DNA of 64,000 nucleotides from Syntrophales bacterium (GCA_963666365.2 CAXXNF010000001.1:544001-608000), one strand, 5' to 3'. Shown: positions 10,866-33,917, counted from the stretch's first letter. The notes: generated from the sequence alone by a model not told the origin. Translations and numbers: made by a program.

Positions 10866-10882
10866 AATATCTCCCTCAGATC

Positions 10883-10911: not shown

Positions 10912-10930
10912 GCCCGGTTTATCTAGTACA

Positions 10931-11006: not shown

Positions 11007-11137
11007 GTTTTTTTCTTTCTTTTTTTCTATTAGGTTGCTATATTCGGCTTCACTGGACCATCGGGACGTGCGGGTGGCGCTTATACCGATACAGCATCCT
11101 GTTATCCGATTCATGGCCTCCTCTTCTGCCGCCCGCA

Positions 11138-12502: not shown

Positions 12503-12511
12503 GGTATGCTC

Positions 12512-15974: not shown

Positions 15975-15975
15975 G

Positions 15976-18575: not shown

Positions 18576-18870
18576 TGCGCTTTCCCCTGGCCTTTTCTAC
18601 TGCGATTTTTTCCCGCTCTACTTTTATGACGCCGATCAGGCGCCATTCCTCGTCGGTAAGCTCATGCCGGCCGACGGGGCAGCCCGCCTCGATGAGGGCC
18701 AGGAAGTCGATCAGTTTGAAGATGATCGGTTCCTGTATTTCCTGATTCCACGGGCAGATGGGGCATATTTCCTCTTCTACGTATTCTGCCGGGTTTTCGT
18801 CCCAGGCGTCGCAGTCGTCGCAGGCGGGGACGCCGGCCCGCTCATCGAGGAGCCTGACGTCCTGCCTCAG
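18550..18870 (-). CDS. tail assembly chaperone gpT-like extension reached by -1 frameshift
   Basis: 106 open codons in the -1 frame after A AAA AAC with no start of their own (LRQDVRLLDERAGVPACDDC...NPD). Confidence 0.75.
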   Translation of the reverse strand: MRQDVRLLDERAGVPACDDCDAWDENPAEYVEEEICPICPWNQEIQEPIIFKLIDFLALIEAGCPVGRHELTDEEWRLIGVIKVEREKIAVEKARGKRNGGTQNPD

Positions 18871-19190
18871 TTTTTTATATCGATCTCCACCTGCTCGAAC
18901 GTCTGGAAAATTATGTCGTTTTTCCAGTTTGCCGGGATGCTGCCTTTTTTATCGACCGTAATGGGTGTGCCGTCGCGGTCGTCCAGGTTCTCCACCTCCG
19001 TGAGCAGCAGATCGAAAAAGTTAATGCGGGCCGCCAGAGAGCGGTCTTTCATTCGGTTTTTTCGGTCCACCGAGTAGCGCTCGGCCATGAATTCGTTTAA
19101 TTCCTTGTTCGTGGGTTCCCGGAGGGTGAATTTTACCTCCTCGTTGCCCAGTTTTATGATTGCCGTCGTTCCTTCGCTTAATCTGGCCAT
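18867..19190 (-). CDS. tail assembly chaperone (gpG-like)
   Basis: Between tail tube and TMP; ends in slippery A AAA AAC TGA. Confidence 0.8.
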   Translation of the reverse strand: MARLSEGTTAIIKLGNEEVKFTLREPTNKELNEFMAERYSVDRKNRMKDRSLAARINFFDLLLTEVENLDDRDGTPITVDKKGSIPANWKNDIIFQTFEQVEIDIKN

Positions 19191-19205
19191 TTCATATCCT
19201 CTCTA

Positions 19206-20300
19206 TCAGGCCGCCGCCGCCAGGTAGGCCGCCTGGGCGTTATAGACGGCGATCATCGCCGCCGAATTGGTTCCGTCGTCGAGCACGTTGCACTCGAATT
19301 CCTGCGTCAGTGTGTCGCCCACGCCGCCTTTAGGCAGCGGGGCCTTTACGATTTTGAACCGCGGCACGATCAGCGTGACGCCGTAATACATGGCGCCGCC
19401 CGCGGCAATCAGCGAGCCTTTGAGATTAAATTCGATGGCGAGCGGATTCTGGTTGATGAAATAATCCAGCTCCGTCGAACTGTAGAAGAGCAGGGAGAAT
19501 TTCAACTCCGCCGCGCGCCGGCCGTAGTCGTAATCCTGGAAGACGCCGCCGCCGCCGAAGCCGGGCTGCCCCGCGCCGTTGTTGTTCCAGCCGAATTCCA
19601 TCGATTTGAGGCGGGCCTTGATGGCGTCGGGCGTGTCGCTGGAGATGTTCTCGGCGCCCTGTACGAGCGCCGCACCGGCCGCAATGGAGATGTTGTCGCC
19701 CGATTCCATCCACACGGAGCATTTGTTCAATTTTAGCCAGCTTTCGGTTATCGCTGCGGCAAACGCCGTGGAGGACGTTGCCCGCGTTCCTGATCCGACC
19801 AGCGCCGCCTCCAGGGAGACCACCCCGCCCTCCTGCCCGGCGATTTTGAACGAATTGCCCTTGACGCCTTTGTAGGCGTACTGGATCCCGCCGAGCTTCT
19901 GTTCTAATTGGATCGACGGGATGGCCGTGCCGACGGCGACCGGGGTTATGACGTGCTTATAGGCGGTAAGCTCGCCGTCCTGGGTGCTCGTAATGCCGCC
20001 CATACACAACCCAGCGATTCCGGCGACCGAGTTCGGCTTGGCCCTTGCCTCTTTGTAGGCAAAGGTCGCGCCCTGCTCGACGATCTCCTGATCGTAGCCG
20101 TGTTCCTTGCCGGTCACGTCGTCTTTGTCGTTGACGACCGCGTCCGCCCATTCCGTTTCGCAGGAAAACCCCGTCATCGAACAGGCGTTTGACGAATTCA
20201 TGGTCACGCCGGAATCGTATGCCGCGGCTTCGCCGACGGGCGACTCTTTTTGAAACAGGCTCATCATGAGCTGATGATTCCAACCTTTTTTTGTCTGCAT
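19206..20300 (-). CDS. major tail tube protein
   Basis: Position before chaperone and TMP; beta-rich 364 aa; no sheath gene nearby. Confidence 0.7.
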   Translation of the reverse strand: MQTKKGWNHQLMMSLFQKESPVGEAAAYDSGVTMNSSNACSMTGFSCETEWADAVVNDKDDVTGKEHGYDQEIVEQGATFAYKEARAKPNSVAGIAGLCMGGITSTQDGELTAYKHVITPVAVGTAIPSIQLEQKLGGIQYAYKGVKGNSFKIAGQEGGVVSLEAALVGSGTRATSSTAFAAAITESWLKLNKCSVWMESGDNISIAAGAALVQGAENISSDTPDAIKARLKSMEFGWNNNGAGQPGFGGGGVFQDYDYGRRAAELKFSLLFYSSTELDYFINQNPLAIEFNLKGSLIAAGGAMYYGVTLIVPRFKIVKAPLPKGGVGDTLTQEFECNVLDDGTNSAAMIAVYNAQAAYLAAAA

Positions 20301-20374
20301 AGGATTTACCTCCGCGATCTCTTCCTATTGTTTTTTCTTTTCCGTCTCGTTCGGCGCCATATATCCCAGGCGCA

Positions 20375-20923
20375 TTATGCAACACACCCCCAAGGAATAG
20401 AACCCCAAGCGAATTCGCCCCATTCCGCGCCTATATCGGACCGTTCCTCCTCTATGTCTAATGTTTCGACTGCGCAGAGCCTGCCCTCGGCAAAATGGCA
20501 AAGGACGGACCCGAATTTGCGAATGTCGATCGTCTCGATCTGCGGACCCCGCATACCTTGCATCGGTCCCCAGTCCGGGTTGATCGTGTCGCAGCTTTCG
20601 TTGAGATCGTCGCGCAGATTGAAGGCGCTGCACAGATCCTCGACATGGTCGTCAAAGGCGATGCCCGTTGCCTCGGCGTCCTCGAGTCCGCACAGGCGGC
20701 GAAAACGGAACACATGGGCGATCTCCGATTCTCCTGCAGCCAGAAACCGCTCTATGCGCTGGATCCTGAAAAACATAAAACCGTTGATTCTTCCGTCAAC
20801 CTTGAACAGCTCCAGAAACTTGGAATATTCGGCGCTGAACCGTTCGTAATCGTGGATCCGACCAACTCCCGGAACGCCTGATGCGATCACTCGAATCTGT
20901 TGCCGAATCGCCTCGAGACTCAT
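20375..20923 (-). CDS. tail terminator / neck protein
   Basis: Position; GVPGVG.IHDYER N-terminus; C-terminal WGxxxWGxxxWG. Confidence 0.5.
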   Translation of the reverse strand: MSLEAIRQQIRVIASGVPGVGRIHDYERFSAEYSKFLELFKVDGRINGFMFFRIQRIERFLAAGESEIAHVFRFRRLCGLEDAEATGIAFDDHVEDLCSAFNLRDDLNESCDTINPDWGPMQGMRGPQIETIDIRKFGSVLCHFAEGRLCAVETLDIEEERSDIGAEWGEFAWGSIPWGCVA

Positions 20924-21411
20924 TGCACCCTCCGCGCCGTTTCATCGGCAATGTCCGAAAGGATGGAGAGCACCCGCGCCATATTGTCGCCGATTGTGTT
21001 TTTGAACATATGCGCCCCCTCCGTTCCGCGGCGCGATATTGCGCGCGCCACCAGGAACGCCACGCTGTCCGCTTCCTTGCCGTCTATTTGCATCGTATGC
21101 ACGACCCAATGCCTGATTGCATCCACCGGCGGGAAATGCGGCTTTGTGCCGGATTCAACCGGTTCTCCGTGGACCGCCGGTGTTCCGAGGATTCCCGTGG
21201 TTGCCCCTTCGACCGATACGACCTGCCCGTAAATGGTATCCCGCAGGTGAATGGGGCCGGCCCCCTCGGGGGTTGCCTCTTTAATCAGCCGCTCAAGAAG
21301 CTGCACCGCTTCGGTAACCTTCGATTCGCGCGCCGCCCGCGATTCTGCCGGGTAGCGCTCCGAAAGCTCCTTGATGCCGGAAAGATCATATTTTATGACC
21401 GTTTCAAACAT
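20920..21411 (-). CDS. neck / virion morphogenesis protein (HK97 gp10-like)
   Basis: TP..G.LR, VE.GT.PH.PP, I.R.GT...MF motifs. Confidence 0.65.
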   Translation of the reverse strand: MFETVIKYDLSGIKELSERYPAESRAARESKVTEAVQLLERLIKEATPEGAGPIHLRDTIYGQVVSVEGATTGILGTPAVHGEPVESGTKPHFPPVDAIRHWVVHTMQIDGKEADSVAFLVARAISRRGTEGAHMFKNTIGDNMARVLSILSDIADETARRVQ

Positions 21412-22103
21412 CAGCGATATTTCCTCGGATGCGTCATATGGTCTTCGCCCCATGACGGCGTCGAATCCTGGTCGCCGGTTACCGACGCCGCTTTCGTTTG
21501 GCCATCCTTGATGCCCATATGATCGGCATACAACTTCCTGTACCGGGCGGCTCTCGCCGCAAAATCTCGGGATTTGCTCGTATGGTCCACGCTGTCAGCC
21601 TGGATAGTCGAATCCTGATTGCTGGCATAATAAGTGGCCAGCATCTCGCAAAAAACGGAGGCAGCCAGCGCCTGCACCGCCTCTTCGTCGAACCCGGCCA
21701 CCGTGCAGGTGGAATCTGTGCAAGCATGCATGGCCGTGTAGGTCACGCGGATCGATTCCGAAGCCGTGGGCCTGTCTTCCAGGAACCTGATTACCTGGCC
21801 GGAAGGTTTCCGATATATGCGCCATTCGCTGTCATGCAGCATATCGGGCGTCTCGTCGTCGTCATTTACCGGGTATTCGATCGATTTGACGGAGGAAAAT
21901 TCATCGTCCCACGCTTCCAGCCCTGATACCGGATAATCGAATCCGCCGTCGCCGTCCACGTCCTCAACGACAATGCGCGGTTTGTGTTTGGAATGCTCTT
22001 TCACGGCCCTGCCGATCGCCAGAATCTTATCGGCCTCGCCAAGCGGAAACTCTCCATGCACAAACCGCCCGATCGCCGCTATGTAGTCGTCTCGTGTACT
22101 CAT
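21411..22103 (-). CDS. head-tail adaptor protein
   Basis: Position and size. Confidence 0.5.
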   Translation of the reverse strand: MSTRDDYIAAIGRFVHGEFPLGEADKILAIGRAVKEHSKHKPRIVVEDVDGDGGFDYPVSGLEAWDDEFSSVKSIEYPVNDDDETPDMLHDSEWRIYRKPSGQVIRFLEDRPTASESIRVTYTAMHACTDSTCTVAGFDEEAVQALAASVFCEMLATYYASNQDSTIQADSVDHTSKSRDFAARAARYRKLYADHMGIKDGQTKAASVTGDQDSTPSWGEDHMTHPRKYR

Positions 22104-22113
22104 GATCGCTCCG

Positions 22114-22569
22114 CTAATTCTTAAAAATCCCTAGGGACGACAGCGTAAACGACGTGCCGCCGACGACATATTTCAACCGAATATACTTGCCGAAATTAGT
22201 GATTGCCTGCCGATATTGCCCGGTAGCGGTGATCTGGCTTATGGACGTATGATCGTACCATGTCGAATCGTCGCCGCTGACCTGGATCGTGATATCCAGT
22301 GTGGATGTGCCGGCCTCAGCGATAACGCCTACCAGGATCTGCCCTTCGTAATACGCAGACACTTCAAAACTCGACGAATAACCGGTGGCCGCAGTATACG
22401 TCCCGGACGACAGCATGGTGACGATCCTCGTTGTCCGGTCCGAAGCCCCTGCCGGGACGGCGCTGAACAGCATAATGGCGAACATAACCGCCACAACGGC
22501 CGGAATAAGCCCTGTAAGCCAACATTCTTTCAGGCTACATCTACCTGCGTGTTCTTGCGATTGCCTCAT
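22114..22569 (-). CDS. beta-rich putative virion protein with a signal-peptide-like N-terminus
   Basis: AGGAGG RBS; hydrophobic stretch ending VPAGA; IQVSGD...WYD and KYIRLKY motifs. Confidence 0.6.
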   Translation of the reverse strand: MRQSQEHAGRCSLKECWLTGLIPAVVAVMFAIMLFSAVPAGASDRTTRIVTMLSSGTYTAATGYSSSFEVSAYYEGQILVGVIAEAGTSTLDITIQVSGDDSTWYDHTSISQITATGQYRQAITNFGKYIRLKYVVGGTSFTLSSLGIFKN

Positions 22570-22626
22570 TTTTGCCCTCCTGGTGCGTTTTTCCCGCCCC
22601 TCGATATCCAATGCTCGAGAGTCCGG

Positions 22627-22657
22627 AAAAACGGGGCGGGGCGAACCCCGCCCGTTT
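22627..22657 (-). terminator. intrinsic terminator
   Basis: AAACGGGCGGGG-TTCG-CCCCGCCCCGTTTTT on the minus strand. Confidence 0.6.
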
Positions 22658-22660
22658 GCA

Positions 22661-24214
22661 TTATGGTTTTTCGTATATTTCAACTACGTCGGTGCCGTTG
22701 TCGGCATAAATCGCGGTTTTAGCGTTGGCGATCGTACCGCCGCTCTGCCCCGTAACCTTGAATGTCAAAATCTGGCCGGACGTATTGTTGATAAAAAAGA
22801 TCTTGCCCGCTGTCGCTGCGGGAAGAATCGCGTTGCATCCCCCATCCGCATTCGTCACGATGATATATGTTGCCTGGGCCTCAGATGCCGACAGCGTCCA
22901 GTCCGCATGCCCGCCGCTGTAATCGTGCGATGCCGTGCTGCACACGTCTACTGTGCCGGACGCATCGGGCAACGTGATTGTCCGGTCTGCGGTCGGATCG
23001 GTGGAAGATACGGTCGTTTCGTAAGCGTCGGCCGTCGCGCCCTCGAAGACAAGACCGTTCGATGTGCCCGTCACTGCATTTGCCGCGTCGGCCCCGTTGG
23101 TTGCCAGGCTCGACAGCATCACCGTGCCGCCCGCGTCGGGAAGCACCACCGACCGGTCCGCAGTCGGATCAGTGGAAGATACGGTTGTTTCGTAAGCGTC
23201 GGCCGTCGCGCCCTCGAAGACCAGGCCATTCGATGCGCCCGTCACTGCATTTGCCGCGTCGGCCCCGTTGGTTGCCAGGCTCGACAGCATCACCGTGCCG
23301 CCCGCGTCGGGAAGCACCACCGACCGGTCCGCAGTCGGATCAGTGGAAGATACGGTCGTTTCGTAATCGTTTGCCGTTGCGCCCTCGAAGACCAGGCCGT
23401 TCGATGCGCCTGTTACCGCATTTGCCGCGTCGGCCCCGTTGGTTGCCAGGCTCGACAGCATCACCGTGCCGCCCGCGTCGGGGACCGTCACGGTCCTGTC
23501 TGCGGTCGGGTCGGTGAACGCGACAGTAGTTTCGTAAGCGTTGGCCGTTGCACCCTCCGCTACGAGGCTGTTGGCCGCGCCCCATATGCCCGTTGCGGCG
23601 TCGGGAATGGCGGCGGAGAGAATCGGCACGCCCGATGCATCGGGCAGCGTGATAGTGTTGTCCGCAGTCGGGTCGGTAACGGCAATCGTCGTTTCATAGG
23701 CGTCTGCCGACGCGCCCTCCATGATAATCGGCGATGCGCCGGAGAGCACGCCCAGGGCCGTCAGTGTTGAGCTGTCGAAGTAGTTGCCGCAGTTGACGTA
23801 ATAGTCGGTAGTCGATATGGCGATGCCCACCTGCTGGTCCCAGGATGGCGCGGATTGCGTAATCGCGCCTGCCGTTTCGGACAGATAGCCCGGCTGCCCT
23901 TCGGTCAGCGACGACCATCCGGAAAACACGCCCTGTATGACAATCTCCACGTTGGCGCCCGATGCCGCGTCCTTCCCGGCAACGCCCACGGCGGGCCGGA
24001 GGTCGGAATCGTTTGCATCGGCTGCATACGCGTATCCGTCGGCGTCTTTTATGGCCACCGCCTCTCCGGCGCTTATGGCCTCGCCTGCAACGGCGGATAT
24101 TCGCGTCCATTTAAGCTTTGCATAATAGGCCGCCTGCGCAGGCATCGCGATTAGCGCGATCAGCATCAAGGCGGCGACAATCAGCGCAATATTGAAAATT
24201 CTGATTCTTTTCAT
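22661..24214 (-). CDS. head decoration / head-fibre protein with signal peptide and 57-aa repeats
   Basis: Directly after the capsid gene; AGEAISAG domain; repeated EGA.A..YETT....DPTAD. Confidence 0.65.
   Translation of the reverse strand: MKRIRIFNIALIVAALMLIALIAMPAQAAYYAKLKWTRISAVAGEAISAGEAVAIKDADGYAYAADANDSDLRPAVGVAGKDAASGANVEIVIQGVFSGWSSLTEGQPGYLSETAGAITQSAPSWDQQVGIAISTTDYYVNCGNYFDSSTLTALGVLSGASPIIMEGASADAYETTIAVTDPTADNTITLPDASGVPILSAAIPDAATGIWGAANSLVAEGATANAYETTVAFTDPTADRTVTVPDAGGTVMLSSLATNGADAANAVTGASNGLVFEGATANDYETTVSSTDPTADRSVVLPDAGGTVMLSSLATNGADAANAVTGASNGLVFEGATADAYETTVSSTDPTADRSVVLPDAGGTVMLSSLATNGADAANAVTGTSNGLVFEGATADAYETTVSSTDPTADRTITLPDASGTVDVCSTASHDYSGGHADWTLSASEAQATYIIVTNADGGCNAILPAATAGKIFFINNTSGQILTFKVTGQSGGTIANAKTAIYADNGTDVVEIYEKP
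22950..23720. repeat. 171-bp tandem coding repeats (about 5 units, three near-identical)
   Basis: GTGGAAGATA recurs at 23001, 23172 and 23343. Confidence 0.9.
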
Positions 24215-24311
24215 GTCATGTCCTCCATCTGAGGTTTTTAAAGTGAGGGCCGCAGCCTCGCGGCCCTCAATGTTCTTGACGATAGAAACGATCCTAACGC
24301 TTTTAACGCCG

Positions 24312-26705
24312 CTAATCGGCTACAACAGCCTTGTACGCGCCCACGTAATCGAGCGGGCTGCCGCCGTATTCATGGCGCACTTTGTGCTTGATCTGATCGG
24401 CCACGAGCATGAACTGCCCGGTAGGCACATCGGCCACGAAATATTCCGGTTCCTCGTTGCCGAAAAGATAGCCCATCTCGATAATTTCGGCGATGTCGGC
24501 AGGAACGGTCAGGATCCAGTCGGTGGCGTCGCCGTTCAACAGGGGATTCGCCCGCGGAACGAGCCTGTTTGCACAGGGGTTTCTCGTTTTGGCCGTGAGA
24601 TCGTTGGAGCTGTAATAGTACGGCTCATTTGCGATGTCCTCTGCAGTAGACAGCAGATCCGCCGGTACCCACAGATTGACTTTTGTGTCTCCACCGCCAA
24701 GGATGCCGATATATTCTCCCGAATCCTTTTCCGTCATCTTCATGAGGGCGAGATAGGCGGTCCATGCATTTGCATAGCCCAGCGCGCCCGATCCCAGGTT
24801 CCCGTGGGCTTCGGTGAATATTGCCGTTCCATCGGTGCAGGTCGAATTGTCGATCAGGAATGTCCAGCAGAACCGTGCATGCGTCCGGCGCGTTGAAATG
24901 CCAAGTGCGTCAAGTATGCGGGTTGCCACGCTGATATCGTCGTTAATCAAAAATTTCCTCGAGAACGTGAGCAGATTTCCCTTCTGGAGGACCACGTAGG
25001 AGGCTTCTTCGTCCGTGATGGCCGCAATTTCATGATAATCTCCCGATTCCGGATCGACATCCTCAATATCGGGGAATCCGCCGACTTTGACCGCTTCCTG
25101 CGTTTTAAAATTCTTCGCAGATTTTTTTACGGAAACGATCATGTTTTCGTAATATTCGATCTTGTTATACGCCGCGATCAGCCGCCGCGCCATCGTATTG
25201 CCCAGGGCGTAAGTGAAGGTCGTGCTGTCGATCTCCATCATGGCGCGCTTCGGATGAAAGCGGCCCGTGACCTCGGCGTCGCCGCCGAAAAACACGTAGG
25301 CTTCCATTATGCTCTTGAACGCGGGAATTTTGTCGAACTCAGCGAAATCCTGAACGCTTCGCATATCCATAAACTTTGGTTCATGGTCCAGGCGTTCCAT
25401 TCGGGCGAACTGCTGCATCTGCTCGCCACGGAATCCGAAGAGCCGGTCCAGCCCCATCTGCGCCTTTTGCAGCGAATCGATGCCGACTCGGATCGACGGT
25501 CCTGCGGCGACGCCGTTTCCCTCGGCGGGTGCCGACATCTGCGCGATGTAATCCTTCTCCGCGCCGATGGCCGTATCGAGTTCGGCGGGCTCGAATATCC
25601 TGCCGTCAAACTGTTCCCGGACGCGCTTTTTAGCGAACGCCGGCAGGTCCGATTCGGCGAGTTTGTCTGAAAGCAGCGTGCCGCACCGGAACAGTCTGAA
25701 ATCGTCCTTTGTGGCGAAATTTCCGTTGTCGCCGCCTCCGGCCGAATCTGCCGCTTTCGGCTCCATTGCCATTCTGGCCAGCCCCTGTATATCCTGATCG
25801 GTAAGGGTCGTTGCGTCCCTCCCTTGCAGGAGGTCCGGCCGCTTCTCCCTGATAAGACTGATCATATAGTCTCTCATCTGGTCCTCCTCAAATGTGTGGG
25901 CCGGCGCTGAGGCCACCGCCCGGTTGAATTTTCCACCCGCAGCCGCACGGGTGACTATGTCCACGCTGTCGGCACTGAAAAATTTCACTATCTTCAGGAC
26001 CGTTTTGCCGTCGATCACTTCCTGAGTGGCGCGCACAGGGCAATCGAATGAAAGCCCATAGACGCGTTCGCCGTTTTCCATCGCCGCCAGCAGGTTTTTG
26101 CCAAGCCATTTCGCGGAATCCACGAAATGCAGAATGCCTTTGAGACCCTCGCCCGTCACAGCGCGCACCTTGTCGATCCAACCGACCTTGTTGCGCACGA
26201 GCAGTTGTTTGATATCAAAAAGCGGCTCCGGAAGATGCCCCGCCCGTCCGGGAAGTTCGAAGAGGTTTACATCTACGCCCTCGAAAATGCCTTCCTCTGC
26301 AACGGCGCGAATAATGTCGTCCGTGATGTACCACCCCGTCAACGTATGTCCAGGATTGCAAATCGTCACATCCCACTCGGTGCCCTCGACGTTTTTCGCC
26401 ATGCCGATGCGGCAGTCCATAACCAGGCCGCTGTCCGTCGCTTCCTGGCGGGAATTGACATCGACATATTTCTGCTCAACTTCCACGATTTCGCTTCCGA
26501 GCTGTATCGCATCGTCGATAATCGCATAGCCGACACGGTACATCTTCCCTGTGTTGTCGTCGGTGTAGATCAGATATGTGTCATATAGTTCCCTGATCCA
26601 CAGCTGATCGCCCTTGTCTTTCAACGCCGCCCAGACCATTTCCCTGATCCGGTCGAGGCTGATTTCCTGGCTGCTGCGCATATCTATCGTCGGTTTTGTT
26701 TTCAT
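24312..26705 (-). CDS. prohead protease-scaffold-major capsid fusion protein
   Basis: SVDIVT..AAGG protease-like motif; capsid motifs G....SRKFLINDD and DGTAIF..AHGNL. Confidence 0.8.
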   Translation of the reverse strand: MKTKPTIDMRSSQEISLDRIREMVWAALKDKGDQLWIRELYDTYLIYTDDNTGKMYRVGYAIIDDAIQLGSEIVEVEQKYVDVNSRQEATDSGLVMDCRIGMAKNVEGTEWDVTICNPGHTLTGWYITDDIIRAVAEEGIFEGVDVNLFELPGRAGHLPEPLFDIKQLLVRNKVGWIDKVRAVTGEGLKGILHFVDSAKWLGKNLLAAMENGERVYGLSFDCPVRATQEVIDGKTVLKIVKFFSADSVDIVTRAAAGGKFNRAVASAPAHTFEEDQMRDYMISLIREKRPDLLQGRDATTLTDQDIQGLARMAMEPKAADSAGGGDNGNFATKDDFRLFRCGTLLSDKLAESDLPAFAKKRVREQFDGRIFEPAELDTAIGAEKDYIAQMSAPAEGNGVAAGPSIRVGIDSLQKAQMGLDRLFGFRGEQMQQFARMERLDHEPKFMDMRSVQDFAEFDKIPAFKSIMEAYVFFGGDAEVTGRFHPKRAMMEIDSTTFTYALGNTMARRLIAAYNKIEYYENMIVSVKKSAKNFKTQEAVKVGGFPDIEDVDPESGDYHEIAAITDEEASYVVLQKGNLLTFSRKFLINDDISVATRILDALGISTRRTHARFCWTFLIDNSTCTDGTAIFTEAHGNLGSGALGYANAWTAYLALMKMTEKDSGEYIGILGGGDTKVNLWVPADLLSTAEDIANEPYYYSSNDLTAKTRNPCANRLVPRANPLLNGDATDWILTVPADIAEIIEMGYLFGNEEPEYFVADVPTGQFMLVADQIKHKVRHEYGGSPLDYVGAYKAVVAD

Positions 26706-26720
26706 CGGTCGCCGCCTCCC

Positions 26721-27014
26721 TTATTTCTTCGGGCCGGGTGTAAGCTTCTTCGACTTCGGATTCGGATTGATGCCGGTGATCTGGATCTGATTCAGAGGCG
26801 TTACCTCGTCGCCGGCTGCATAAAAAACCTTTTTTCCACCCCTGGTAACGATGACCGCCACGGTTGTTTTGCGCCTCGGATCTTGCCGCACGCCGGAGGC
26901 AAAGACGTATTTCTCGTCGATGCCGTAGGCGTCGCATGCCATTGCTATAAGCTCCTTCTTCTTGTCCGGTTTTTTTGCCGTCTCGTCGACGGCCGGGTCT
27001 TTTTTCTCCGCCAT
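26721..27014 (-). CDS. hypothetical phage protein
   Basis: 97-aa basic ORF with AGGAGG RBS. Confidence 0.6.
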   Translation of the reverse strand: MAEKKDPAVDETAKKPDKKKELIAMACDAYGIDEKYVFASGVRQDPRRKTTVAVIVTRGGKKVFYAAGDEVTPLNQIQITGINPNPKSKKLTPGPKK

Positions 27015-27036
27015 TTTTCTGGCCTCCTTTTTGAAA

Positions 27037-27885
27037 TTACGCCGCGAGATCTTCCGCCGCCCGTTCCCAGTGCTCATGATAGGGCACGGAATAGCACCCG
27101 CAATTAATAGTGTTTTCCGCCGATCCAGCCGGATCGCGGGGATACATTAACTTTTCTCCGCCCACGTCGAACGGCTGGTCCACGTCCCTGATCTGCCCGT
27201 CCGCAGCCAGATGCGACATTCGCGGAACCTTCGCAAAATCGCTGTGCACCCATTGCTTTTTCAACCCCGGAACCGCCTTTGCCGCCTGCTCGCGCCTGGC
27301 CTGGTTCGCTGCCTCAAGCACACGGCCGCATTCGTTGCGCGTAATCGTCTCGGCCCGTGCGGCAATCGATTTGAAAATGCTCTTGTCTTTCAGGTTTTTC
27401 CCCACCGCCTGCATCACTTCGAAGGGCGATTTCCGGCCGAGCAGCCCGCGTGTAAGTTCGGCTGTGATCTTCTTGTTGGCATCCGCCGCAAGCCCCGTCA
27501 CGAGATCGGTGCCGTATCCCTGGAGAATACCGAGCATGGTTGTATCGATTTGCGGCATGGCAACGGCGATGTTCGCGCTCACGGCAGCAGAAACCGGCTC
27601 GTCTACCAGCAAAATGCCCTGGTCCCAGAAATCGAGTTGACGGTCGTTGAGATCCATATTGTACAGCTGCGCATATGACTGCATTGCCCGTTCCACGGCG
27701 CTTTTGAGCTGAGGCAGCCGATACATCTCCCATTCGGTCGATGCCACCGTGGCGGCGATCTCTTTACGCGCCGCCTCCAGAATCCTGATGGAATTTTTTA
27801 CCGCCTCGTTTTCCATCTTGGTCGCCTGTGCGATCAGCTGTTCCACTTTTTTCCTGAATGCCCGCTCCCGCTGAGATTTCGTCAT
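27037..27885 (-). CDS. head morphogenesis protein (Mu gpF / SPP1 gp7 family)
   Basis: RAETITRNE, R.SH..ADGQ, YP.DP....ENTINCGC. Confidence 0.85.
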   Translation of the reverse strand: MTKSQRERAFRKKVEQLIAQATKMENEAVKNSIRILEAARKEIAATVASTEWEMYRLPQLKSAVERAMQSYAQLYNMDLNDRQLDFWDQGILLVDEPVSAAVSANIAVAMPQIDTTMLGILQGYGTDLVTGLAADANKKITAELTRGLLGRKSPFEVMQAVGKNLKDKSIFKSIAARAETITRNECGRVLEAANQARREQAAKAVPGLKKQWVHSDFAKVPRMSHLAADGQIRDVDQPFDVGGEKLMYPRDPAGSAENTINCGCYSVPYHEHWERAAEDLAA

Positions 27886-27887
27886 AA

Positions 27888-29312
27888 CTACCCCAGCAAT
27901 TTATCGTAATCGGTGCCGCCGTCATCCGGCGCACTCTTCGCCGCGTCGATCATTTCCTGTGCGTCGATCTCGTACCCCAGATAGGTTGCCGCATAGGCGA
28001 AGAGCTTCGTTGCCTCGTCTGCGGTGATGAACCGCTCCGATACCGCGATCGAAAGCGCCGTGGTTATCTGCGGCAATCCGTTCATGATCTTTGTGAAATC
28101 CTTTTTGGAAATCTCCGGCATATTGACAGAAAAACCCGCCTCGGCCTGCTTCTCCGACAGGCGGCCGTGAATGACCGCCTGATCCACGACGAACTGAATC
28201 ACGTCGTTCAATAAATCCGTATATTCCCGCTGCCGGTCGTCGAGATCCTTATACGGCACCGCCCCGAAGAGTTCCGCCTCGGTTTGATATGCCTTTCCGC
28301 CCTCGCCGTACCACGACGCCGGACGGCCCGCCGAACCCATGATGAACGATTTCGCCATCTCGAAACCCTGGGTCATGTCGGCCGCTTTCAGGTCCGGCGC
28401 CACTGCTTTCCATTCAACCTGCTCGTTATGCGCACGCATCGCTCCCGGCTGCGGCGCCTGGTTGTCTCGAAGCCATTTGCGGATCTCTTCCTCGTCCATG
28501 CCTTTCAGCAAAACATCCCAGATAAAATTCAGCAAAAACTCGGCACGTTCCAGATAGTTGAATCCGTAACGCTCCATAGAATCTATCCAGTCGAACAATG
28601 TCAGATAGTCGGATCTGCCCCTGGGCGAATTGGGCGGATTGTTGATCGCCATGAAAAATGCATTTCCTACCAAGCGCCCAAACTCCTTCTTTCGCGGGTC
28701 GGCCTCCTCTCGAATGATGGTGTATTTCTCGCCGGGACGTCCCATTCGGCCCTTGAGTTCCACCATCCACACCTGTTCGACATTTCGCGGGTTGACATAT
28801 ACTTCTTTTATCTGAGCCGGATCGATGTAGCGCATCCGAATGAATCCGTTAACCGGGTTGACATCGACAGGCCACAGCTGCTCGCCGAGCACCGAAAGCC
28901 ACAGGCATTTTCGCGGAAACCGCAGGGCCATTTTGTTTTCCCGGTGTTTTAAAAAACGGTCGATAACGCCCTGGACCTCCGGATCGTCCGACTGGACGGT
29001 AAAGGGCTCGCCGAATATAAAGGTCTTGTCTATCGTGGCCATGCGCTTCAGCATGGGCGAGGCGTCCCACATATAATAGGCAACCTCGAACATGCGGTCC
29101 TGCGTGATCGGAGTCAGGTCGCGTCGCGTCACCGGTTCGGCGCCGGTCTTGCGGTAACCTTCATTGTTCGGATCGTAAGACGCCGTAATCGGTACGGCCA
29201 TCTTCGCCCGCCTTACTTCCCCGGCCACCTCGACGGCCACCATTTCGCGGATTTCCTCGTCGGATCTCAGCCCAGGAGCCAGCACGCGCGCTATTTTTTC
29301 CCGAAAACTCAT
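27888..29312 (-). CDS. portal protein
   Basis: Between terminase and gpF; TGATG coupling to the terminase stop. Confidence 0.75.
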   Translation of the reverse strand: MSFREKIARVLAPGLRSDEEIREMVAVEVAGEVRRAKMAVPITASYDPNNEGYRKTGAEPVTRRDLTPITQDRMFEVAYYMWDASPMLKRMATIDKTFIFGEPFTVQSDDPEVQGVIDRFLKHRENKMALRFPRKCLWLSVLGEQLWPVDVNPVNGFIRMRYIDPAQIKEVYVNPRNVEQVWMVELKGRMGRPGEKYTIIREEADPRKKEFGRLVGNAFFMAINNPPNSPRGRSDYLTLFDWIDSMERYGFNYLERAEFLLNFIWDVLLKGMDEEEIRKWLRDNQAPQPGAMRAHNEQVEWKAVAPDLKAADMTQGFEMAKSFIMGSAGRPASWYGEGGKAYQTEAELFGAVPYKDLDDRQREYTDLLNDVIQFVVDQAVIHGRLSEKQAEAGFSVNMPEISKKDFTKIMNGLPQITTALSIAVSERFITADEATKLFAYAATYLGYEIDAQEMIDAAKSAPDDGGTDYDKLLG

Positions 29313-30850
29313 CAATGAAACATCCTCTCCCTGTCGTTTCCGAACCGCCCGAAAAATCCGTCTCGGCCCCTGTTCCCGCGCCCTCCGTTGCCTCCCCACA
29401 CCGTAGGCTTAGGCTCCGGATCTGCACCGACGCAAAGCACAACGCCCTGTGTGGAGGATGCATGCACCGCAAGCCCCTTCGCCCAGAAATGATCAGCATG
29501 CCCCGTTTGTTCCGTGCGTTCGGCATCAAACCGGAAATGCTTAGTAGTTGTGGCGTATTTCTTTACCGAATGCAGTGAATTGCGTATTGTGTTCGATGCG
29601 GGGATCACACTGCCGCGATCCTCGAAATTCCTTTTCAGTCCGACTGCAAGCGCCTCCTTATTCCCAGTGCTGAAATCGATTCCTTCTACCTTCGAGCCGA
29701 AAAGCGTCTGTGCGTTTTCCGCCAACTGCTCGCCGATTCCCGTTTTATCCATGCAGGCGCGCCGCATCCGTTTCAACGTCAGCAAGGTGTGGAGCACTTG
29801 CTCCTGCACAAAGAACGGCTGTTTTTTCAGTTCGATCACGGCAAGCGAATATAGGACGTTTTGTATTTTCTGATCCAGCCAGATAACGGAAAAATCGCGA
29901 TGGCGCCCTATATCCATTCCTGCAAATAGGTCGCCTGAAAACTCCACATTTGCGAGTGCATGCAGGGGCAGAGGTGGGGAAATCTTGGTGCGTTTGAATT
30001 CATAAAAGTTAATTTCAGCCGCCTTAATCAGTATTTCCGCCCATACCGGCGTCATGACCAGTTTCACATCCTCGACAGAGGAAATCAGCTCATGCGTCAA
30101 AAACGCCGATACCTCATCGGAGGGAATGCATTCGTATTCCTCGGCCCATGCATCGTCGTCGTTCAGGGCGAGACGCAGATCCTCGGGATCGCAAGGATTC
30201 CCCTCGTCGTCTCTCAGATCCAGTCCCATTTCAACGGCCTGATAGATGTTGACGAAGTGTTTCGACCAGCCGCCTTTTTCGCCCAGGAATTCGTGATCGC
30301 GTCCGTTGAATCGCTGCAGCGTGGGCGCACCGAAAAAGAGCTCGTAAAATTTATTTGTCTTCCCCTTGAAAGTAGATATGATCCTGATTTTATAGCCGCG
30401 GGTAACCGTGGGAAAGAGAGCTTTCCAGATTTCACGGCTGTCGCGATGCAAGGCGAATTCGTCAAGAAGGATGTTTGCCGACCATCCGCGGGCCGTGTCG
30501 GGATTGGCCGGTAGGCCTACGATGCGGGATCCGTTGGGAAAGATTATCTCCAACATCCGGTATTTCGTATCCTTGTCGACCCAGTAATCTTCTTCCAGCT
30601 CCTCGACGGCCCGGCCGATGGCCCTCGCGTGCATGGCGGCCTTGCCCATGAGTTCTTTCGATTGTCGCTCTCCCGCAGAAAGAAAAACCCACATAGTCTT
30701 TTGTTCCACGCAGTCAAAGACGGCCTCGAGGGCCGTGCCGAAGGACTTCCCTCCCTGACGGGTGATCACGCCTATTTTGAATCGGCTTTTGTCCGTTACC
30801 CAGGTCCCTTGATAGTCGGTCAGGGGTATGAGGGGGCTAGAAGATGCCAT
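29312..30850 (-). CDS. terminase large subunit (Mu gp28-like)
   Basis: RQGGKS Walker A, LLDEFA Walker B, GMDIGR, DKTGIG, GHADHFWA. Confidence 0.92.
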   Translation of the reverse strand: MASSSPLIPLTDYQGTWVTDKSRFKIGVITRQGGKSFGTALEAVFDCVEQKTMWVFLSAGERQSKELMGKAAMHARAIGRAVEELEEDYWVDKDTKYRMLEIIFPNGSRIVGLPANPDTARGWSANILLDEFALHRDSREIWKALFPTVTRGYKIRIISTFKGKTNKFYELFFGAPTLQRFNGRDHEFLGEKGGWSKHFVNIYQAVEMGLDLRDDEGNPCDPEDLRLALNDDDAWAEEYECIPSDEVSAFLTHELISSVEDVKLVMTPVWAEILIKAAEINFYEFKRTKISPPLPLHALANVEFSGDLFAGMDIGRHRDFSVIWLDQKIQNVLYSLAVIELKKQPFFVQEQVLHTLLTLKRMRRACMDKTGIGEQLAENAQTLFGSKVEGIDFSTGNKEALAVGLKRNFEDRGSVIPASNTIRNSLHSVKKYATTTKHFRFDAERTEQTGHADHFWAKGLAVHASSTQGVVLCVGADPEPKPTVWGGNGGRGNRGRDGFFGRFGNDRERMFH

Positions 30851-31364
30851 AGATCTCCTCTTTGATGATTCGCATCGTTTCGGGGTCTAGCGAGTTCTTG
30901 GCCGTTTTCTTTTCTATCGTTGCCAACGCCTTTTCGGCTTTCTTACGCGCCTCCGCCTGCCACTTTTTCTGCTGTACCGAGGCCCGGCTCAAGCGGGCCA
31001 CCATGACCCCCATCTTGGGGAATATTTTTGAAAATTCCTCAGGGTCCTCATCTTGCAGCCGTATCAGCACGTCGAATGCCCGTTCCTGTACAAGCCGTAT
31101 CAAGGCGTCATTCATTGCGCCCTCTTCGTCGCCGACAACGCTCGCGATCGCCTTCGCCTGTTCCGTGGCCACCTTGATCTGGGCCAGGCGTTCTTCAAAT
31201 TGCTGGCCGTACCGGTGAACCGCCGATCTCGATATTTCGTAGCCCTGTTCGGCCAGCCACTCCGCAAGCCCCTGATAATCGGAAAAACAGCTTGTCACCA
31301 GGCGTTGGTTCAATTCTTCCCTTATCTCTTCGGGAAGCTGTGTTACGGCTGATCTCTGCGGCAT
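30837..31364 (-). CDS. terminase small subunit (Mu gp27/DUF3486-like)
   Basis: S.V.QLP, ISRSAVHRY, ends EEIYGI. Confidence 0.8.
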   Translation of the reverse strand: MPQRSAVTQLPEEIREELNQRLVTSCFSDYQGLAEWLAEQGYEISRSAVHRYGQQFEERLAQIKVATEQAKAIASVVGDEEGAMNDALIRLVQERAFDVLIRLQDEDPEEFSKIFPKMGVMVARLSRASVQQKKWQAEARKKAEKALATIEKKTAKNSLDPETMRIIKEEIYGIF

Positions 31365-31365
31365 C

Positions 31366-31680
31366 TCACCACCACTTCTTCGGGCGCGCGATTCCGGGAT
31401 GGCAGTCGATCGTGTATTCTGCCATGTCCATTCCCGCGCGGGTCAGTTTCATGTGCCACTGCGGGGTTCCGCGTCCCTCGATCTTCACCAGGTCGCGCTC
31501 CTCCAGATAATCGTATTCCCGGCGCAGTTCGATCTGCGTCGCGTCGATCGGTATCGCCTGTATCGTCGTCAGCATGATCGACTCGCTGGCCCCGATGGGA
31601 CGGGCCGCGTTGAGCGCAACCAGGATGTGCCAGCGGATGGTTTCCCGCCGCGCCTTTTCCACATCAATTCCGTTGTTCAT
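31366..31680 (-). CDS. Mu gp26-like winged-helix protein
   Basis: RE.IRW.IL, YLEERDLV, LTRAG.D, PGIARP. Confidence 0.7.
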   Translation of the reverse strand: MNNGIDVEKARRETIRWHILVALNAARPIGASESIMLTTIQAIPIDATQIELRREYDYLEERDLVKIEGRGTPQWHMKLTRAGMDMAEYTIDCHPGIARPKKWW

Positions 31681-31984
31681 CGTTCGACCTCCAGCGGTCC
31701 TTTATTAACTCCATCATGTCAGCCAGCTTGTCCATTTTCGCGTAGATCACGGTTTCAAACCGGATGTGATCCTCGCGTCTGATATAGTTCAAAGGGAGAT
31801 CGGCTTTGATCTTCAGGATGTCCTTTTCGATCTCCCGCGTGTTCGCTTCCTGCGCCTGAAATTTGTTGTCATAATTTTTAAAGCACCGGTTGAGGGTGAA
31901 CCGCACCGTGGCGATTATGATCAGGCTCCACGCCGCGATCAGTCCGAGCAAAAAGAGCATCTGAAACCAGGGAACCTCGCTCAT
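31664..31984 (-). CDS. membrane-anchored coiled-coil phage protein
   Basis: N-terminal TM helix and LPLNYIRRED motif. Confidence 0.65.
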   Translation of the reverse strand: MSEVPWFQMLFLLGLIAAWSLIIIATVRFTLNRCFKNYDNKFQAQEANTREIEKDILKIKADLPLNYIRREDHIRFETVIYAKMDKLADMMELIKDRWRSNDEQRN

Positions 31985-32250
31985 CCATCGACCTCCCGTT
32001 TCGCCTCGCAGCGCGTGCATCGCGTTGCGCCGGGCATCGCAGCCAGACGCGCCGCCGGTATGGGTTTTCCGCAGTCCGGGCATATCCGCCCCTCGCCCGC
32101 CCCATCCGGTCCCGCTCCTGGATCGGATGCGGGCCGGATGGCGACGGGCTTCTTCGGGGAGGGTTCCTTTATCTTCCGGAAATGCGCCGCGAGCGCCGCA
32201 TTTCTGAAACATTCCGCATAAGCCTGCGCGCAGTCGGTCTCGTCCATCAT
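31981..32250 (-). CDS. TraR/DksA-family C4 zinc-finger protein
   Basis: DETDCA (DxxDxA) and CPDCG.PIP.ARL.A.PGA.RC..C. Confidence 0.85.
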   Translation of the reverse strand: MMDETDCAQAYAECFRNAALAAHFRKIKEPSPKKPVAIRPASDPGAGPDGAGEGRICPDCGKPIPAARLAAMPGATRCTRCEAKREVDG

Positions 32251-32438
32251 TTCTTCCGCCGTTTCGCCAGACGTTTCAAGGAACCGATCGAATCGCCCAG
32301 GGCTTTGAGGATCTTGCTCTCCGGAAACATCGCCCGGAGAACCGCATAGGCGAGCCCCAAGGTGACAAGGTTGTGCTTCGCAAAGGCCAGAAGCGCCTCG
32401 TCGATGGATACGGTCGAGATGAATTCGAGCATGGTCAC
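32247..32438 (-). CDS. small holin-like membrane protein
   Basis: 63 aa, hydrophobic core, basic C-tail, in the lysis cassette. Confidence 0.5.
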   Translation of the reverse strand: MTMLEFISTVSIDEALLAFAKHNLVTLGLAYAVLRAMFPESKILKALGDSIGSLKRLAKRRKK

Positions 32439-33019
32439 ACCAATTTCCCGCCGAACCGATAGCAGTTCGTGAATTTTTTAATGTCGCCGGGCCATGCGGC
32501 TTTGCGCTCGATCGCGTCCCAGTCGGCATATACCTTCAGATAAATATCTCGTTTCAAGTCCTCGCATATGCGAGCCATGTCGCATCCGGTCCGAAGCGCC
32601 ATGAAGGCGAACTCGCTGCAAAAAAAGGCGTCGGCGTCTTCCGAGACCCGCCCCAGGGCGTTTTTAAACAATCCCGCGTAATCGTAGGATTTCCCGAGCT
32701 GTGAAAAGGCCCAGGTCCCCAGGTAGCGCCGCGCCGGGTCGAGATCATCGCAGAGCGGGTACCAGTAAATCTCGCCGTCATAGGATTCGAGCACATTGGA
32801 TAAAAGCTGCACCTGAATGCCGCCGCGATCCGCGCCGATGATGAACCGCCGTTTTTCCTCGCCCTCGTAATCGAGCAGCCGAATCACCGTTTCCACATGC
32901 GAAAATTCCGTGAACAACCGGATAGCCCCGCTCACGATCCCGGACCCCGCGAACACGATCAGATCGCCCGTGTGAAATTGCGATTTCAGCGATTCGTATG
33001 TAGTGGTGTCATTTTTCAT
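32435..33019 (-). CDS. permuted papain-like amidase (YiiX/YebB-like NlpC/P60)
   Basis: GDLIVF, FSHV, SYDY, FCSEF motifs. Confidence 0.75.
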   Translation of the reverse strand: MKNDTTTYESLKSQFHTGDLIVFAGSGIVSGAIRLFTEFSHVETVIRLLDYEGEEKRRFIIGADRGGIQVQLLSNVLESYDGEIYWYPLCDDLDPARRYLGTWAFSQLGKSYDYAGLFKNALGRVSEDADAFFCSEFAFMALRTGCDMARICEDLKRDIYLKVYADWDAIERKAAWPGDIKKFTNCYRFGGKLV

Positions 33020-33121
33020 TTCGTTTATCGCGGGGACTGGGCGGTCAGCGCCGCCCCGTCCCCTTCTCCTATAGGTTCCTTGCCGGCGTCTCAGTTCGGT
33101 ACGGCAAGAACCGCCTCGTTA

Positions 33122-33574
33122 TCAAATAAAGAACCTGTGATTCCCGATGATCTGCACCTCGGTCAACGATGACGCCCAATATGGCTCTGTGGCAAGCGTC
33201 GCGTAATGCGTGGCCAGGACGTTGGGCTCAATGACGCCCCGGATGAGCCCCACGGCCAGCAAATGACATCGAAAAAGCGTTTCGTTCCCTTCCAGGGCGC
33301 CGTTATAATCCGCCGCGATGGCGCCCAATTTCGCATAATTGGGATCGGAAGGAAGATAACAGGAAAACTGAAAGGGCTTGAGGCACACCTCGGAGACGGT
33401 CGCCCCGTACCACCCGCCGCACCGGAACCGTTCGAGGATCACCGAGCCCACGGCCCGCTTGCCATAGAGCGACTCCCCCCGCGCCTCGCCGTAAATCGTC
33501 AACGCCATGATCTGGATATCCTCCAGATGCCCGAATTTCTCGGCCAGAAGTTTTTTGAGTTCCGATGGTTTCAT
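33122..33574 (-). CDS. cell wall hydrolase (SleB/Hydrolase_2-like) endolysin
   Basis: TIYGEARGE, QFSC, THY, IGNHRF. Confidence 0.88.
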   Translation of the reverse strand: MKPSELKKLLAEKFGHLEDIQIMALTIYGEARGESLYGKRAVGSVILERFRCGGWYGATVSEVCLKPFQFSCYLPSDPNYAKLGAIAADYNGALEGNETLFRCHLLAVGLIRGVIEPNVLATHYATLATEPYWASSLTEVQIIGNHRFFI

Positions 33575-33593
33575 GGTCCTCCCCCTAGAAACG

Positions 33594-33638
33594 AAAAAAG
33601 CCCGGCGCCGGGGAGAATGCTCTCCCCGGAAACCGGGC
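33594..33638 (-). terminator. intrinsic terminator / attenuator in the late leader
   Basis: GCCCGG-TTT-CCGGGGAGA-GCAT-TCTCCCCGG-CG-CCGGGC-TTTTTT on the minus strand. Confidence 0.75.
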
Positions 33639-33701
33639 GCTCAGGCCGCTCTATTCAATTATTGGTCGCTCAGGACGCTATATATTGTGCATTAGCGTTT
33701 A

Positions 33702-33729
33702 ATTAAAACCATATATAGTATTTTGTCAA
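33702..33729 (-). promoter_or_regulatory. candidate late-operon promoter
   Basis: TTGACA (33724-33729), 16 bp, TTTAAT (33702-33707) in an AT-rich gap. Confidence 0.55.
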
Positions 33730-33917
33730 GTTTTTTTGTGCACTTCAACCCGGTTTTTACATCGCGGGCAGGGGTCCTTTATAAAAACGGCTTCTCCGTC
33801 TACAAGCCACTCTCCCAGCACTTTGCCGCAAATTGGACACTTGATCGCCTCACTTTGGTAAGCCGTCGGCTTTACCGTTTTCAGCTCGTTTGCGGCTATG
33901 GATATTCCCCTTGCCAT
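33726..33917 (-). CDS. Mu Com-like zinc-finger protein
   Basis: IKCPICGKVL...CPRCKN pattern as in Mu Com (IRCKNCNKLL...CPRCKR); TGATG coupling. Confidence 0.65.
   Translation of the reverse strand: MARGISIAANELKTVKPTAYQSEAIKCPICGKVLGEWLVDGEAVFIKDPCPRCKNRVEVHKKT

Follow-up and report, generated by a model that had tools for sequence, protein, structure and literature searches.

A Conserved Zinc-Ribbon Gene and Two-Box Terminator Leader at the Early/Late Junction of Mu-Like Phages: A Candidate Antitermination Switch for Late Genes

The Early/Late Junction of a Syntrophales Prophage

We have analyzed a stretch of 64,000 nt from the genome of a Syntrophales bacterium (GCA_963666365.2, CAXXNF010000001.1:544001-608000), hereafter called the window, focusing on the junction between the early and late genes of the Mu-like prophage that it carries. 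At this junction, a small gene for a zinc-ribbon protein resembling the Com protein of phage Mu is followed by a short leader with two copies of a conserved box and a strong hairpin of terminator type, which lies directly before the endolysin gene. The gene and its leader, together called the cassette in the following, are composed of the elements listed below in the direction of transcription, with positions counted from the first letter of the window.

33729-33917 (33726..33917 with the TGA stop), minus strand: gene for the 63-aa zinc-ribbon (Com-like) protein, candidate antiterminator
33724..33729, minus strand: TTGACA, -35-like hexamer overlapping the zinc-ribbon stop TGA (33726-33728)
33702..33707, minus strand: -10-like TTTAAT, spacer 16, 5/6 matches, imperfect in having no A at position 2
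33664..33679, minus strand: box 1 (AGCGTCCTGAGCGACC), a variant of the 16-nt consensus AGCGGCCWGAGCGCCC
33635..33650, minus strand: box 2, with the consensus sequence, its 3' end being the base of the terminator 5' arm
33594..33638, minus strand: predicted intrinsic terminator with a 7-bp lower stem, a 9-bp upper stem, a GCAU loop and U6
33578..33585, minus strand: endolysin ribosome-binding site (RBS) GGGGGAGG, directly 3' of the terminator
33122..33574 (also given as 33125-33574), minus strand: endolysin, first gene of the late transcription unit (Hydrolase_2 match, E 1.1e-12)

A previous reading of this DNA, made from the sequence alone (the sequence-only reading), had singled out an open reading frame (ORF) of 63 aa with the motif CxxC...CPRCK and its stop codon inside a TTGACA hexamer, followed by two 13-nt direct repeats, the second of which would run into the 5' arm of a strong terminator before the endolysin. 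This description is accurate: the ORF and its overlapping stop codon are present, the repeats lie precisely at 33667-33679 and 33638-33650, and the second one does enter the terminator at 33594-33638. Within the 64 kb of the window, the repeat AGCGNCCTGAGCG matches only these two sites at no more than one mismatch, against a chance expectation of 0.25 matches, and two or more matches were obtained in 3 of 100 shuffles. The repeat can be extended to 20 nt at 85% identity; the unit conserved across related phages is the 16-nt box.

The position of the promoter-like hexamers suggests that transcription of the leader would start near 33695. A leader of 166 nt folds with an energy of -52.1 kcal/mol (z = -2.43), and in the terminator the lower stem pairs 33638-33632 with 33606-33600, below a perfect upper stem of 9 bp (CCGGGGAGA/TCTCCCCGG), with T6 at 33599-33594. 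A simple terminator scan of the window did not list this hairpin, in our reading because its stem is interrupted. From the T-run to the endolysin ATG (33574) there are only about 20 nt, RBS included, and therefore there is no room for a promoter before the first late gene. We also considered an activator-dependent promoter 3' of the boxes, which was rejected: only a variable G+C-rich hairpin and a U-run are found there.

Conservation of the Cassette in Uncultured Phages

With the zinc ribbon as query, a word-index protein search matched the query alone and an exhaustive HMMER search gave 20 proteins at E ≤ 1e-3, from which we retained 15 small homologues (43-94 aa) and excluded five long proteins (287-2747 aa) whose matches are repeated knuckles. 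A profile-guided scan of IMG/VR produced nine loci, one of which (L014) is a chance knuckle in an ORF of about 400 aa; boxes and terminator accompany the gene in seven of the eight protein-found loci. Two of these (L011 and L012) reproduce the arrangement of the window, namely a stop codon in TTGACA, a good -10 element, both boxes, a terminator into which the end of box 2 is built and then an endolysin, and two others (L008 and L010) have boxes and terminator with inter-box spacers of 77 and 66 nt. The latter two also share a second small Cys-rich ORF, unrelated to the zinc ribbon and with the motif CEECGK...CLGCW, which is located some 2 kb before the zinc-ribbon gene (L008:930-1070 and L010:1464-1640).

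The DNA itself was searched independently of the protein. A first, loose pattern returned at least 120 stretches, nearly all of them chance matches in G+C-rich coding DNA, and a two-box pattern was used instead, whose matches in viral, genome and metagenome contigs numbered 7, 13 and 36 stretches, respectively, and correspond to 47 distinct loci once duplicates were removed and the window and L012 counted. These loci were sorted by the presence of an A+T-rich leader plus a terminator after box 2, before any protein was inspected. By this sorting 24 loci qualify as leaders, including the window and L012, and the remaining 23, among them all 13 matches in genome contigs, consist of repeats (tandem or collagen-like) within G+C-rich coding DNA. 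According to a hidden Markov model (HMM) of the family, 22 of the 24 leaders are preceded, on their own strand, by a zinc-ribbon ORF, versus none of the 23 chance matches. In one of the other two leaders (L184), only 86 nt of contig precede box 1, and these still include the end of the ORF. The distance between the zinc-ribbon ORF and box 1 varies from 36 to 1213 nt, being no more than 74 nt in 15 loci, and in the loci with a wider gap, which reaches 1.2 kb, other genes intervene. The expectation that gene, boxes and terminator would co-occur in related phages is thus borne out from the DNA side as well as from the protein side.

When the ORFs of the 24 loci are clustered, only one family, the zinc ribbon, is shared almost throughout (22 loci). 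The next families, a GemA-like one in 10 loci and two others of the Mu-early type in 7 loci each, indicate that the loci belong to transposable phages. The cassette is real and conserved, recurring in about 25 other uncultured phages.

Across 26 leaders, the 52 copies of the 16-nt box AGCGGCCWGAGCGCCC are nearly invariant; the box is also present in the seven protein-found loci, and a relaxed box pattern matched 48 stretches without adding true variants. Conservation of the boxes, another point of the sequence-only reading, is hence evident, and box 2 is fused to the 5' arm of the terminator in every one of the 26 leaders. Other distances are loose: 29-77 nt separate the two boxes, and 39-61 nt separate TTGAC from box 1 in the 23 of 26 leaders having this sequence within 90 nt upstream of box 1, the remaining three lacking a TTGAC of their own. 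These distances would put box 1 at about +3 to +26 in the predicted transcript. In 13 leaders, TTGAC contains the stop TGA of the zinc-ribbon gene. In three loci (L138, L177 and L172) an inverted repeat spans the promoter, with the -35 hexamer as one of its arms (e.g. TGACGCCT...AGGCGTCA); it is possibly an operator or an RNA hairpin and is absent from the window.

The only fixed geometry among the leaders is that box 2 forms the bottom of the terminator 5' arm, and this fusion, combined with the variable spacing of the other elements, agrees better with an RNA element than with a phased DNA site. This evidence has to be considered in relation to a different way of using the boxes, in which the zinc ribbon would bind them as DNA, either in the duplex or as a non-template hairpin in a paused complex, and then, after a loading step similar to that of Q or AlpA, ride with RNA polymerase and render it resistant to the terminator. 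Such loading would agree with the gene order, which is that of the lambda Q cassette (regulator, promoter, terminator, lysis genes), with boxes located between about +3 and +60 in the predicted transcript, a plausible position for a loading site, with the A/T-rich, -10-like stretch that often follows box 1, and with the operator-like quality of sixteen near-invariant nucleotides; a non-template hairpin, moreover, shares its sequence with the RNA hairpin. It is, however, at odds with the variable distances between boxes and from promoter to box 1, which leave the relation of box 2 to the terminator as the only constant, and with the lack of any antiterminator-Q family in Pfam scans of the early-region ORFs. 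Com, the nearest relative that is known biochemically, binds RNA (Nowacka et al. 2019, PMC6483171). We consequently consider loading through DNA unlikely.

Conservation of the leader also bears on the idea that it constitutes a stand-alone small RNA of about 100 nt, which would act in trans or as a decoy for the zinc ribbon, the late genes being expressed by other means. The combination of a strong promoter-like site with a strong terminator is what such an RNA would have, and the two repeated motifs recall protein-sponge RNAs. Nevertheless, in the leaders inspected the late-gene RBS and start follow the U-run by about 15-30 nt, leaving no promoter space; the three leaders without their own TTGAC do not conform to this idea either, and no Rfam family matches. 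An independent RNA of this kind seems to us improbable.

The Terminator and Its Relation to the Boxes

Judged from its G+C-rich stem, its U-run and the covariation of its stem, the leader hairpin is an intrinsic (Rho-independent) terminator. Its folding energy ranges from -29 to -38 kcal/mol in the 21 leaders in which the hairpin was captured whole; in three leaders, an early T-run shortened the captured hairpin. The upper stems are unrelated in sequence from one leader to another. The lower stem is 97.2% paired in an alignment of 22 sequences, compared with 30-58% in slid controls, and includes three pairs with changes on both sides, giving a covariation score which was reached in none of 500 shuffles.

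In functional terms, the second copy of the box raises a question: Why should box 1, which is remote from the terminator, carry a copy of its arm? The 3' half of the box (GAGCGCCC) is complementary to the 3' arm of the terminator. In constrained folding, which provides thermodynamic inference only, blocking box 2 leads box 1 to re-form a U-proximal helix with the 3' arm in all 26 leaders; when both boxes are blocked, at least four unpaired nucleotides precede the U-run in 16 of the 26, and the fold loses 10-28 kcal/mol. Re-pairing of box 1 with the terminator 3' arm would explain the arm copy in box 1, and the folds obtained with blocked boxes predict a switch that needs two occupied sites.

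The Zinc Ribbon as a Remote Relative of Com

The alignment of the family can be summarized as CPxCGKxxGEW..V.G......K..CPRCKK.V.I.K, and its four cysteines are invariant across 35 sequences. One of the seven homologues that were looked up carries the name 'phage FluMu protein Com' in its source. Comparison of profiles by hhalign gave probabilities of 88.5% (35 columns) and 86.9% (38 columns) with Mu Com, in alignments spanning both CxxC knuckles, whereas the controls remained at 4.3% for P2 Ogr and 1.1% for a P2 DksA-like protein. The Pfam model of Com (PF10122, Zn_ribbon_Com) scores the ORF with 13 bits (E 0.073) versus a cut-off of 22.9; a six-frame search of the genome with PF10122 gave 9.3 bits for the zinc-ribbon ORF and nothing above the cut-off, and PF10122 is not one of the 25 families that the 16 sequences of the zinc-ribbon alignment match most frequently. 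The protein had been called a Com homologue, a designation that holds for the profile alignment along the whole ribbon and fails at the Pfam threshold. To judge from these comparisons, it is a remote, sub-threshold relative of Com rather than a certified member of the family, and the likeness is remote yet specific.

Structural and profile databases offer nothing specific. The AlphaFold model of the 63-aa protein, of modest confidence (mean predicted local distance difference test, pLDDT, of 65), is a four-stranded zinc ribbon preceded by 22 disordered N-terminal residues; a PDB fold search with this model retrieved generic zinc ribbons only and no match at E ≤ 0.001. A profile search of PDB sequences found C2H2 and bL33 knuckles only, and a scan of NCBIfam only generic zinc ribbons, all below the cut-offs.

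The boxes invite a comparison with the RNA target of Com. As reported for its binding site, Com prefers a short hairpin with a loop of six residues next to the translation-inhibition structure; among the winners of in vitro selection (SELEX, systematic evolution of ligands by exponential enrichment) the loop-closing pair is invariably C-G, and GA in the loop of the target is protected (Nowacka et al. 2019, PMC6483171). The same source reports GAG(N)2CC as the core of the selected sequences and CC(N)2-3GAG in the loop as the part that is actually bound (PMC6483171). Each box, when folded alone, forms a 3-bp stem (GGC/GCC) with a C-G closing pair and the hexaloop CWGAGC, and contains GAGCGCC, that is, GAG-N2-CC. 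For comparison, the 19-mer target of Mu (L005:874-892) folds into a 4-bp stem with the loop CUGCGA. In the variant of box 1 shared by the window and L135 (positions 5 and 14), the middle pair changes from G-C to U-A and pairing is kept. Inspection of sequence and predicted folds therefore points to a resemblance, and a resemblance only, between the boxes and the Com target as published (PMC6483171), a point that the sequence-only reading had not made. An inter-box GGCC pairing proposed by RNAalifold was rejected because the same box 1 variant, in the window and L135, creates a U-C mismatch that breaks it in two leaders.

The box does not recur outside the leader: elsewhere in the window none was found at up to one mismatch, and elsewhere in the genome there is no copy of the leader, its covariance model scoring 73 bits here versus 17.6 for the next best match.

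Genomic Context and Absence of Mor and C

The prophage occupies about 31 kb of the window, roughly from 11,000 to 42,700, with a G+C content of 55-60% and its genes on the minus strand. Besides the cassette, its recognizable parts are as follows.

42005-42709, plus strand: S24/LexA-type repressor
40921-41205: Ner-like helix-turn-helix protein
37664-39889, minus strand: MuA transposase
36944-37630, minus strand: MuB-like AAA protein
36035-36421, minus strand: GemA
34987-35436, minus strand: Gam
10086..33121, minus strand: remaining late region, co-oriented (Pfam and PHROGs scans)
10089-10865, minus strand: D12 adenine methyltransferase, at the far end of the prophage

Several small proteins of unknown function are encoded between Gam and the late region, and the latter contains genes for a C92 peptidase, a DksA/TraR zinc finger, a gp27-like protein, terminase, an ORF of portal size, Mu F, capsid, tail tube and tail proteins, in addition to the D12 methyltransferase. 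Among the small proteins upstream of the cassette, one of 168 aa (34066-34569, minus strand) belongs to PHROG 2161, of unknown function, has an N-terminal CPYC, and is found upstream of the cassette in 7 of the 24 related loci; a single-protein scan of genome contigs gave no match for it. A 49-aa ORF lies between this protein and the zinc-ribbon gene. Beyond the repressor end of the prophage there is an adjoining gene with an AbiJ N-terminal domain (42737-43597), after which comes an island of low G+C content (37-41%, 43000-48000) that may be a defence island flanking the prophage.

In phage Mu, GemA is followed by Mor, three small genes, C and lys. In the window, the slot immediately 5' of the endolysin is occupied by the 63-aa zinc-ribbon ORF. 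The claim that no homologue of Mor or C is present has withstood the searches: the Mor family (PF08765, which includes C) was unmatched at E ≤ 1 both in the 4.0-Mb genome (94% complete) and in all five viral records of related phages, of which two have an estimated completeness of at least 90%. No other activator candidate turned up in the Pfam and PHROGs scans and the Mor search.

This context helps in evaluating the sign of regulation, for the protein might instead strengthen termination, acting as a late repressor which stabilizes the terminator or bridges the boxes until another factor relieves the block. The association of gene and leader would be the same in this case, as the sign of regulation cannot be read from sequence alone. 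Yet the terminators are already very stable, no other activator candidate appeared, and a regulator at the end of the early operon takes the position that Mu gives to its positive late regulator, C being encoded directly before lys there. A repressive role is accordingly very improbable in our estimation.

The D12 gene requires separate consideration. As the sequence-only reading had remarked, the zinc-ribbon gene is far from the methylase: about 23 kb separates the two, and D12 is the only methyltransferase gene. Neither a zinc-ribbon ORF nor a box is found beside it. Its RBS (GAGGGAG) lies within a hairpin CCCTCA...TGAGGG (10863-10900, minus strand), which recalls the translation-inhibition structure of Mu mom. 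One could imagine, then, that the leader hairpin is an unregulated and leaky barrier which ends the early operon and damps late transcription, while the zinc ribbon does some other job, for instance that of a Com-like translational activator with a lysis gene or the distant methyltransferase as its target. The known role of Com is indeed translational (PMC6483171); the covered RBS of D12 at the end of the prophage would be compatible with this role, as would the viral locus L013, which has a zinc-ribbon gene without any leader. A leaky barrier would, on the other hand, leave unexplained the conserved pair of boxes tied to the terminator and the 22/24 association with the gene. There is no box elsewhere in the window or the genome, and all the virion genes would be starved behind a hairpin of -30 kcal/mol with its U-run. 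We find this explanation distinctly doubtful.

Neither the zinc-ribbon protein nor the leader was matched in 50,697 deposited phage genomes; in 100 genomes of relatives the zinc ribbon was not found, save for two weak hits in ORFs some 290 aa long; and Rfam 15 gave no match at gathering score in the window and none at E ≤ 10 in 33500-33800. When the covariance model was run on 150 genomes from the same order, it picked up 8 weak matches, of which only L245 seems related. This locus (L245:1500-1800, minus strand) is probably a distant cousin of the cassette: its zinc ribbon has 65 aa and reaches 89% with the family in hhalign, and behind the gene come a promoter-like site, a near-identical terminator and then genes for a membrane protein of 114 aa and an SLT transglycosylase. 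The elements of its leader are different ones and form no direct repeat. Since a literature search, whose coverage left out subscription journals, also found no description of a Com-like late-gene antiterminator, the cassette is undescribed in the sources that could be searched here.

A Candidate Switch for Late-Gene Expression

The anatomy of the leader, its conservation, the association with the zinc-ribbon gene, the covariation of the terminator, the absence of Mor and the remote similarity to Com raise a single question: How are the late genes turned on? We infer from these observations that the Com-like protein binds the boxes in nascent RNA, rather than in DNA, and prevents the terminator from forming, with read-through governed by both boxes; this mechanism would replace the Mor/C cascade. 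Binding in nascent RNA and antitermination had already been suggested in the sequence-only reading, whose predictions held wherever computation could check them. Its probability we estimate at roughly 0.55.

In a clade of transposable phages that are Mu-like but lack Mor and C, the cassette would thereby serve to switch on the late genes by antitermination. Either the sigma-70-type promoter overlapping the end of the zinc-ribbon gene or read-through from the early operon would give rise to a leader of about 100 nt, transcription of which would halt at the intrinsic terminator directly before the lysis and virion genes. The zinc ribbon, of roughly 50-65 aa, would be produced from the early operon and, as it accumulates, would come to occupy both 16-nt boxes in the nascent RNA, each presenting a weak 3-bp hairpin with a C-G-closed hexaloop and GA in the loop, akin to the target of Mu Com. 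Box 2 would normally provide the base of the 5' arm and box 1 would be its spare. With both of them masked, only the upper hairpin could form, apart from the U-tract, and RNA polymerase would enter the late operon.

A broader claim can be built upon this mechanism, namely that Com-type zinc ribbons are an unrecognized family of phage antiterminators, in which a protein of about 50 aa acting on two mini-hairpins of the leader replaces the cascade from Mor to C through a 'two-key' terminator; we hold it to be tentative, with a chance somewhat below even. As to its two-key part, each box copies the 5' arm and both must be occupied, which may produce a sharp timer. In a bolder version, drawn by analogy with N and nut, the complex of protein and RNA may stay with RNA polymerase and act processively over the 22-kb late operon. 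Another strong, terminator-like hairpin occurs at 22634-22653 (minus strand), with 8 G-C pairs followed by CGTTTTT, after the gene for a 517-aa protein with a cement domain; if it works, read-through would be needed for the tail genes too, and hence it bears on the processivity of the switch.

A number of observations weigh against the proposed mechanism, the sub-threshold Pfam scores of the zinc ribbon being the first of them. The association of gene and leader has exceptions in both directions: one locus (L158) has the leader and no zinc-ribbon gene within 2.4 kb, and in L013 (2232-2460) a zinc-ribbon homologue directly precedes an amidase-type endolysin with neither boxes nor terminator, so the gene can exist without the leader. 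The -10 elements are weak in many leaders, and the invariance of the box was partly imposed by the search pattern. With both boxes blocked, some pairing beside the U-run persists in 10 of the 26 leaders. The box hairpin itself is weak, its stability equalling that of shuffles (z about 0), as is also the case for the mini-hairpin of the Mu site, which is no stabler than shuffles; its stem is almost invariant, with one covarying pair in 2 of 22 sequences that may reflect a single event. The spacing from CC to GAG is 1 nt in the box versus 2-3 in the functional SELEX motif (PMC6483171). Lastly, 16 conserved nucleotides likely exceed what a domain of 40 aa can read, whence another partner such as RNA polymerase or a host factor, or else recognition of DNA, may take part.

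We know of no established mechanism for late-gene activation in transposable phages without Mor and C, and the cassette offers a concrete and compact answer to this problem. If the answer is correct, the role of the Com zinc finger would widen from the translation of mom to the control of a late operon at the level of transcription termination, and a very small pair of protein and RNA (about 50 aa and a 16-nt box) would join the parts known to serve phage antitermination. It would also define a conserved and undescribed leader RNA, represented by 26 leaders.

Comparison with Known Systems

The closest parallel is with Com and mom of phage Mu. Both systems have a small zinc ribbon of CCCC type with CPRCK as second knuckle, and both place a C-G-closed hairpin with a six-residue loop, containing GA, directly 5' of the inhibitory stem to be opened (PMC6483171). 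The inhibitory stem of the cassette is, however, an intrinsic terminator, whereas in Mu it is a translation-inhibition structure; its cargo is the whole late operon instead of mom, and its sites are two and identical. The gene of the cassette lies at the early/late junction, about 23 kb from the methyltransferase and without any DNA-modification gene adjoining it, and its product, besides being sub-threshold in Pfam, is predicted to be extended at the N-terminus rather than by a C-terminal tail.

The proposed logic, a constitutive leader with regulator-dependent read-through, is shared with lambda Q/PR'/tR', as well as Q21, Q82 and AlpA of Pseudomonas, in which the leader is made constitutively and is read through only in the presence of the regulator. 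The order of regulator gene, promoter, short terminated leader, lysis genes and virion genes is the same. Unlike in these systems, no Q family emerged when the ORF and the genes around it were scanned with Pfam and PHROGs, the protein is three to four times smaller, and the conserved element overlaps the terminator instead of the promoter or pause site.

Two other principles seem to be joined in the cassette. In the ribonucleic antiterminator (RAT) of BglG, SacY and LicT, a small RNA hairpin bound by protein shares nucleotides with the 5' arm of the terminator, as box 2, putatively protein-bound, does here; in the N-boxB interaction of lambda, a phage protein recognizes a small hairpin in nascent RNA, as is proposed for the zinc ribbon. 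The differences lie in the protein, a zinc ribbon in place of a co-antiterminator (CAT) domain or an arginine-rich peptide, and in the RNA, which has its box in two identical copies, one lying away from the terminator, and no element recognized as similar to boxA.

With the activators of late promoters the cassette shares position or size: C of Mu is likewise encoded directly upstream of lys, and Ogr of P2 is likewise a small zinc-finger regulator of late genes. The zinc ribbon has no homology to the Mor family and its hhalign probability with Ogr is only the 4.3% reported above, while the place where an activated promoter would have its -10 element is filled, in the leaders of the cassette, by the variable G+C-rich stems of the terminator.

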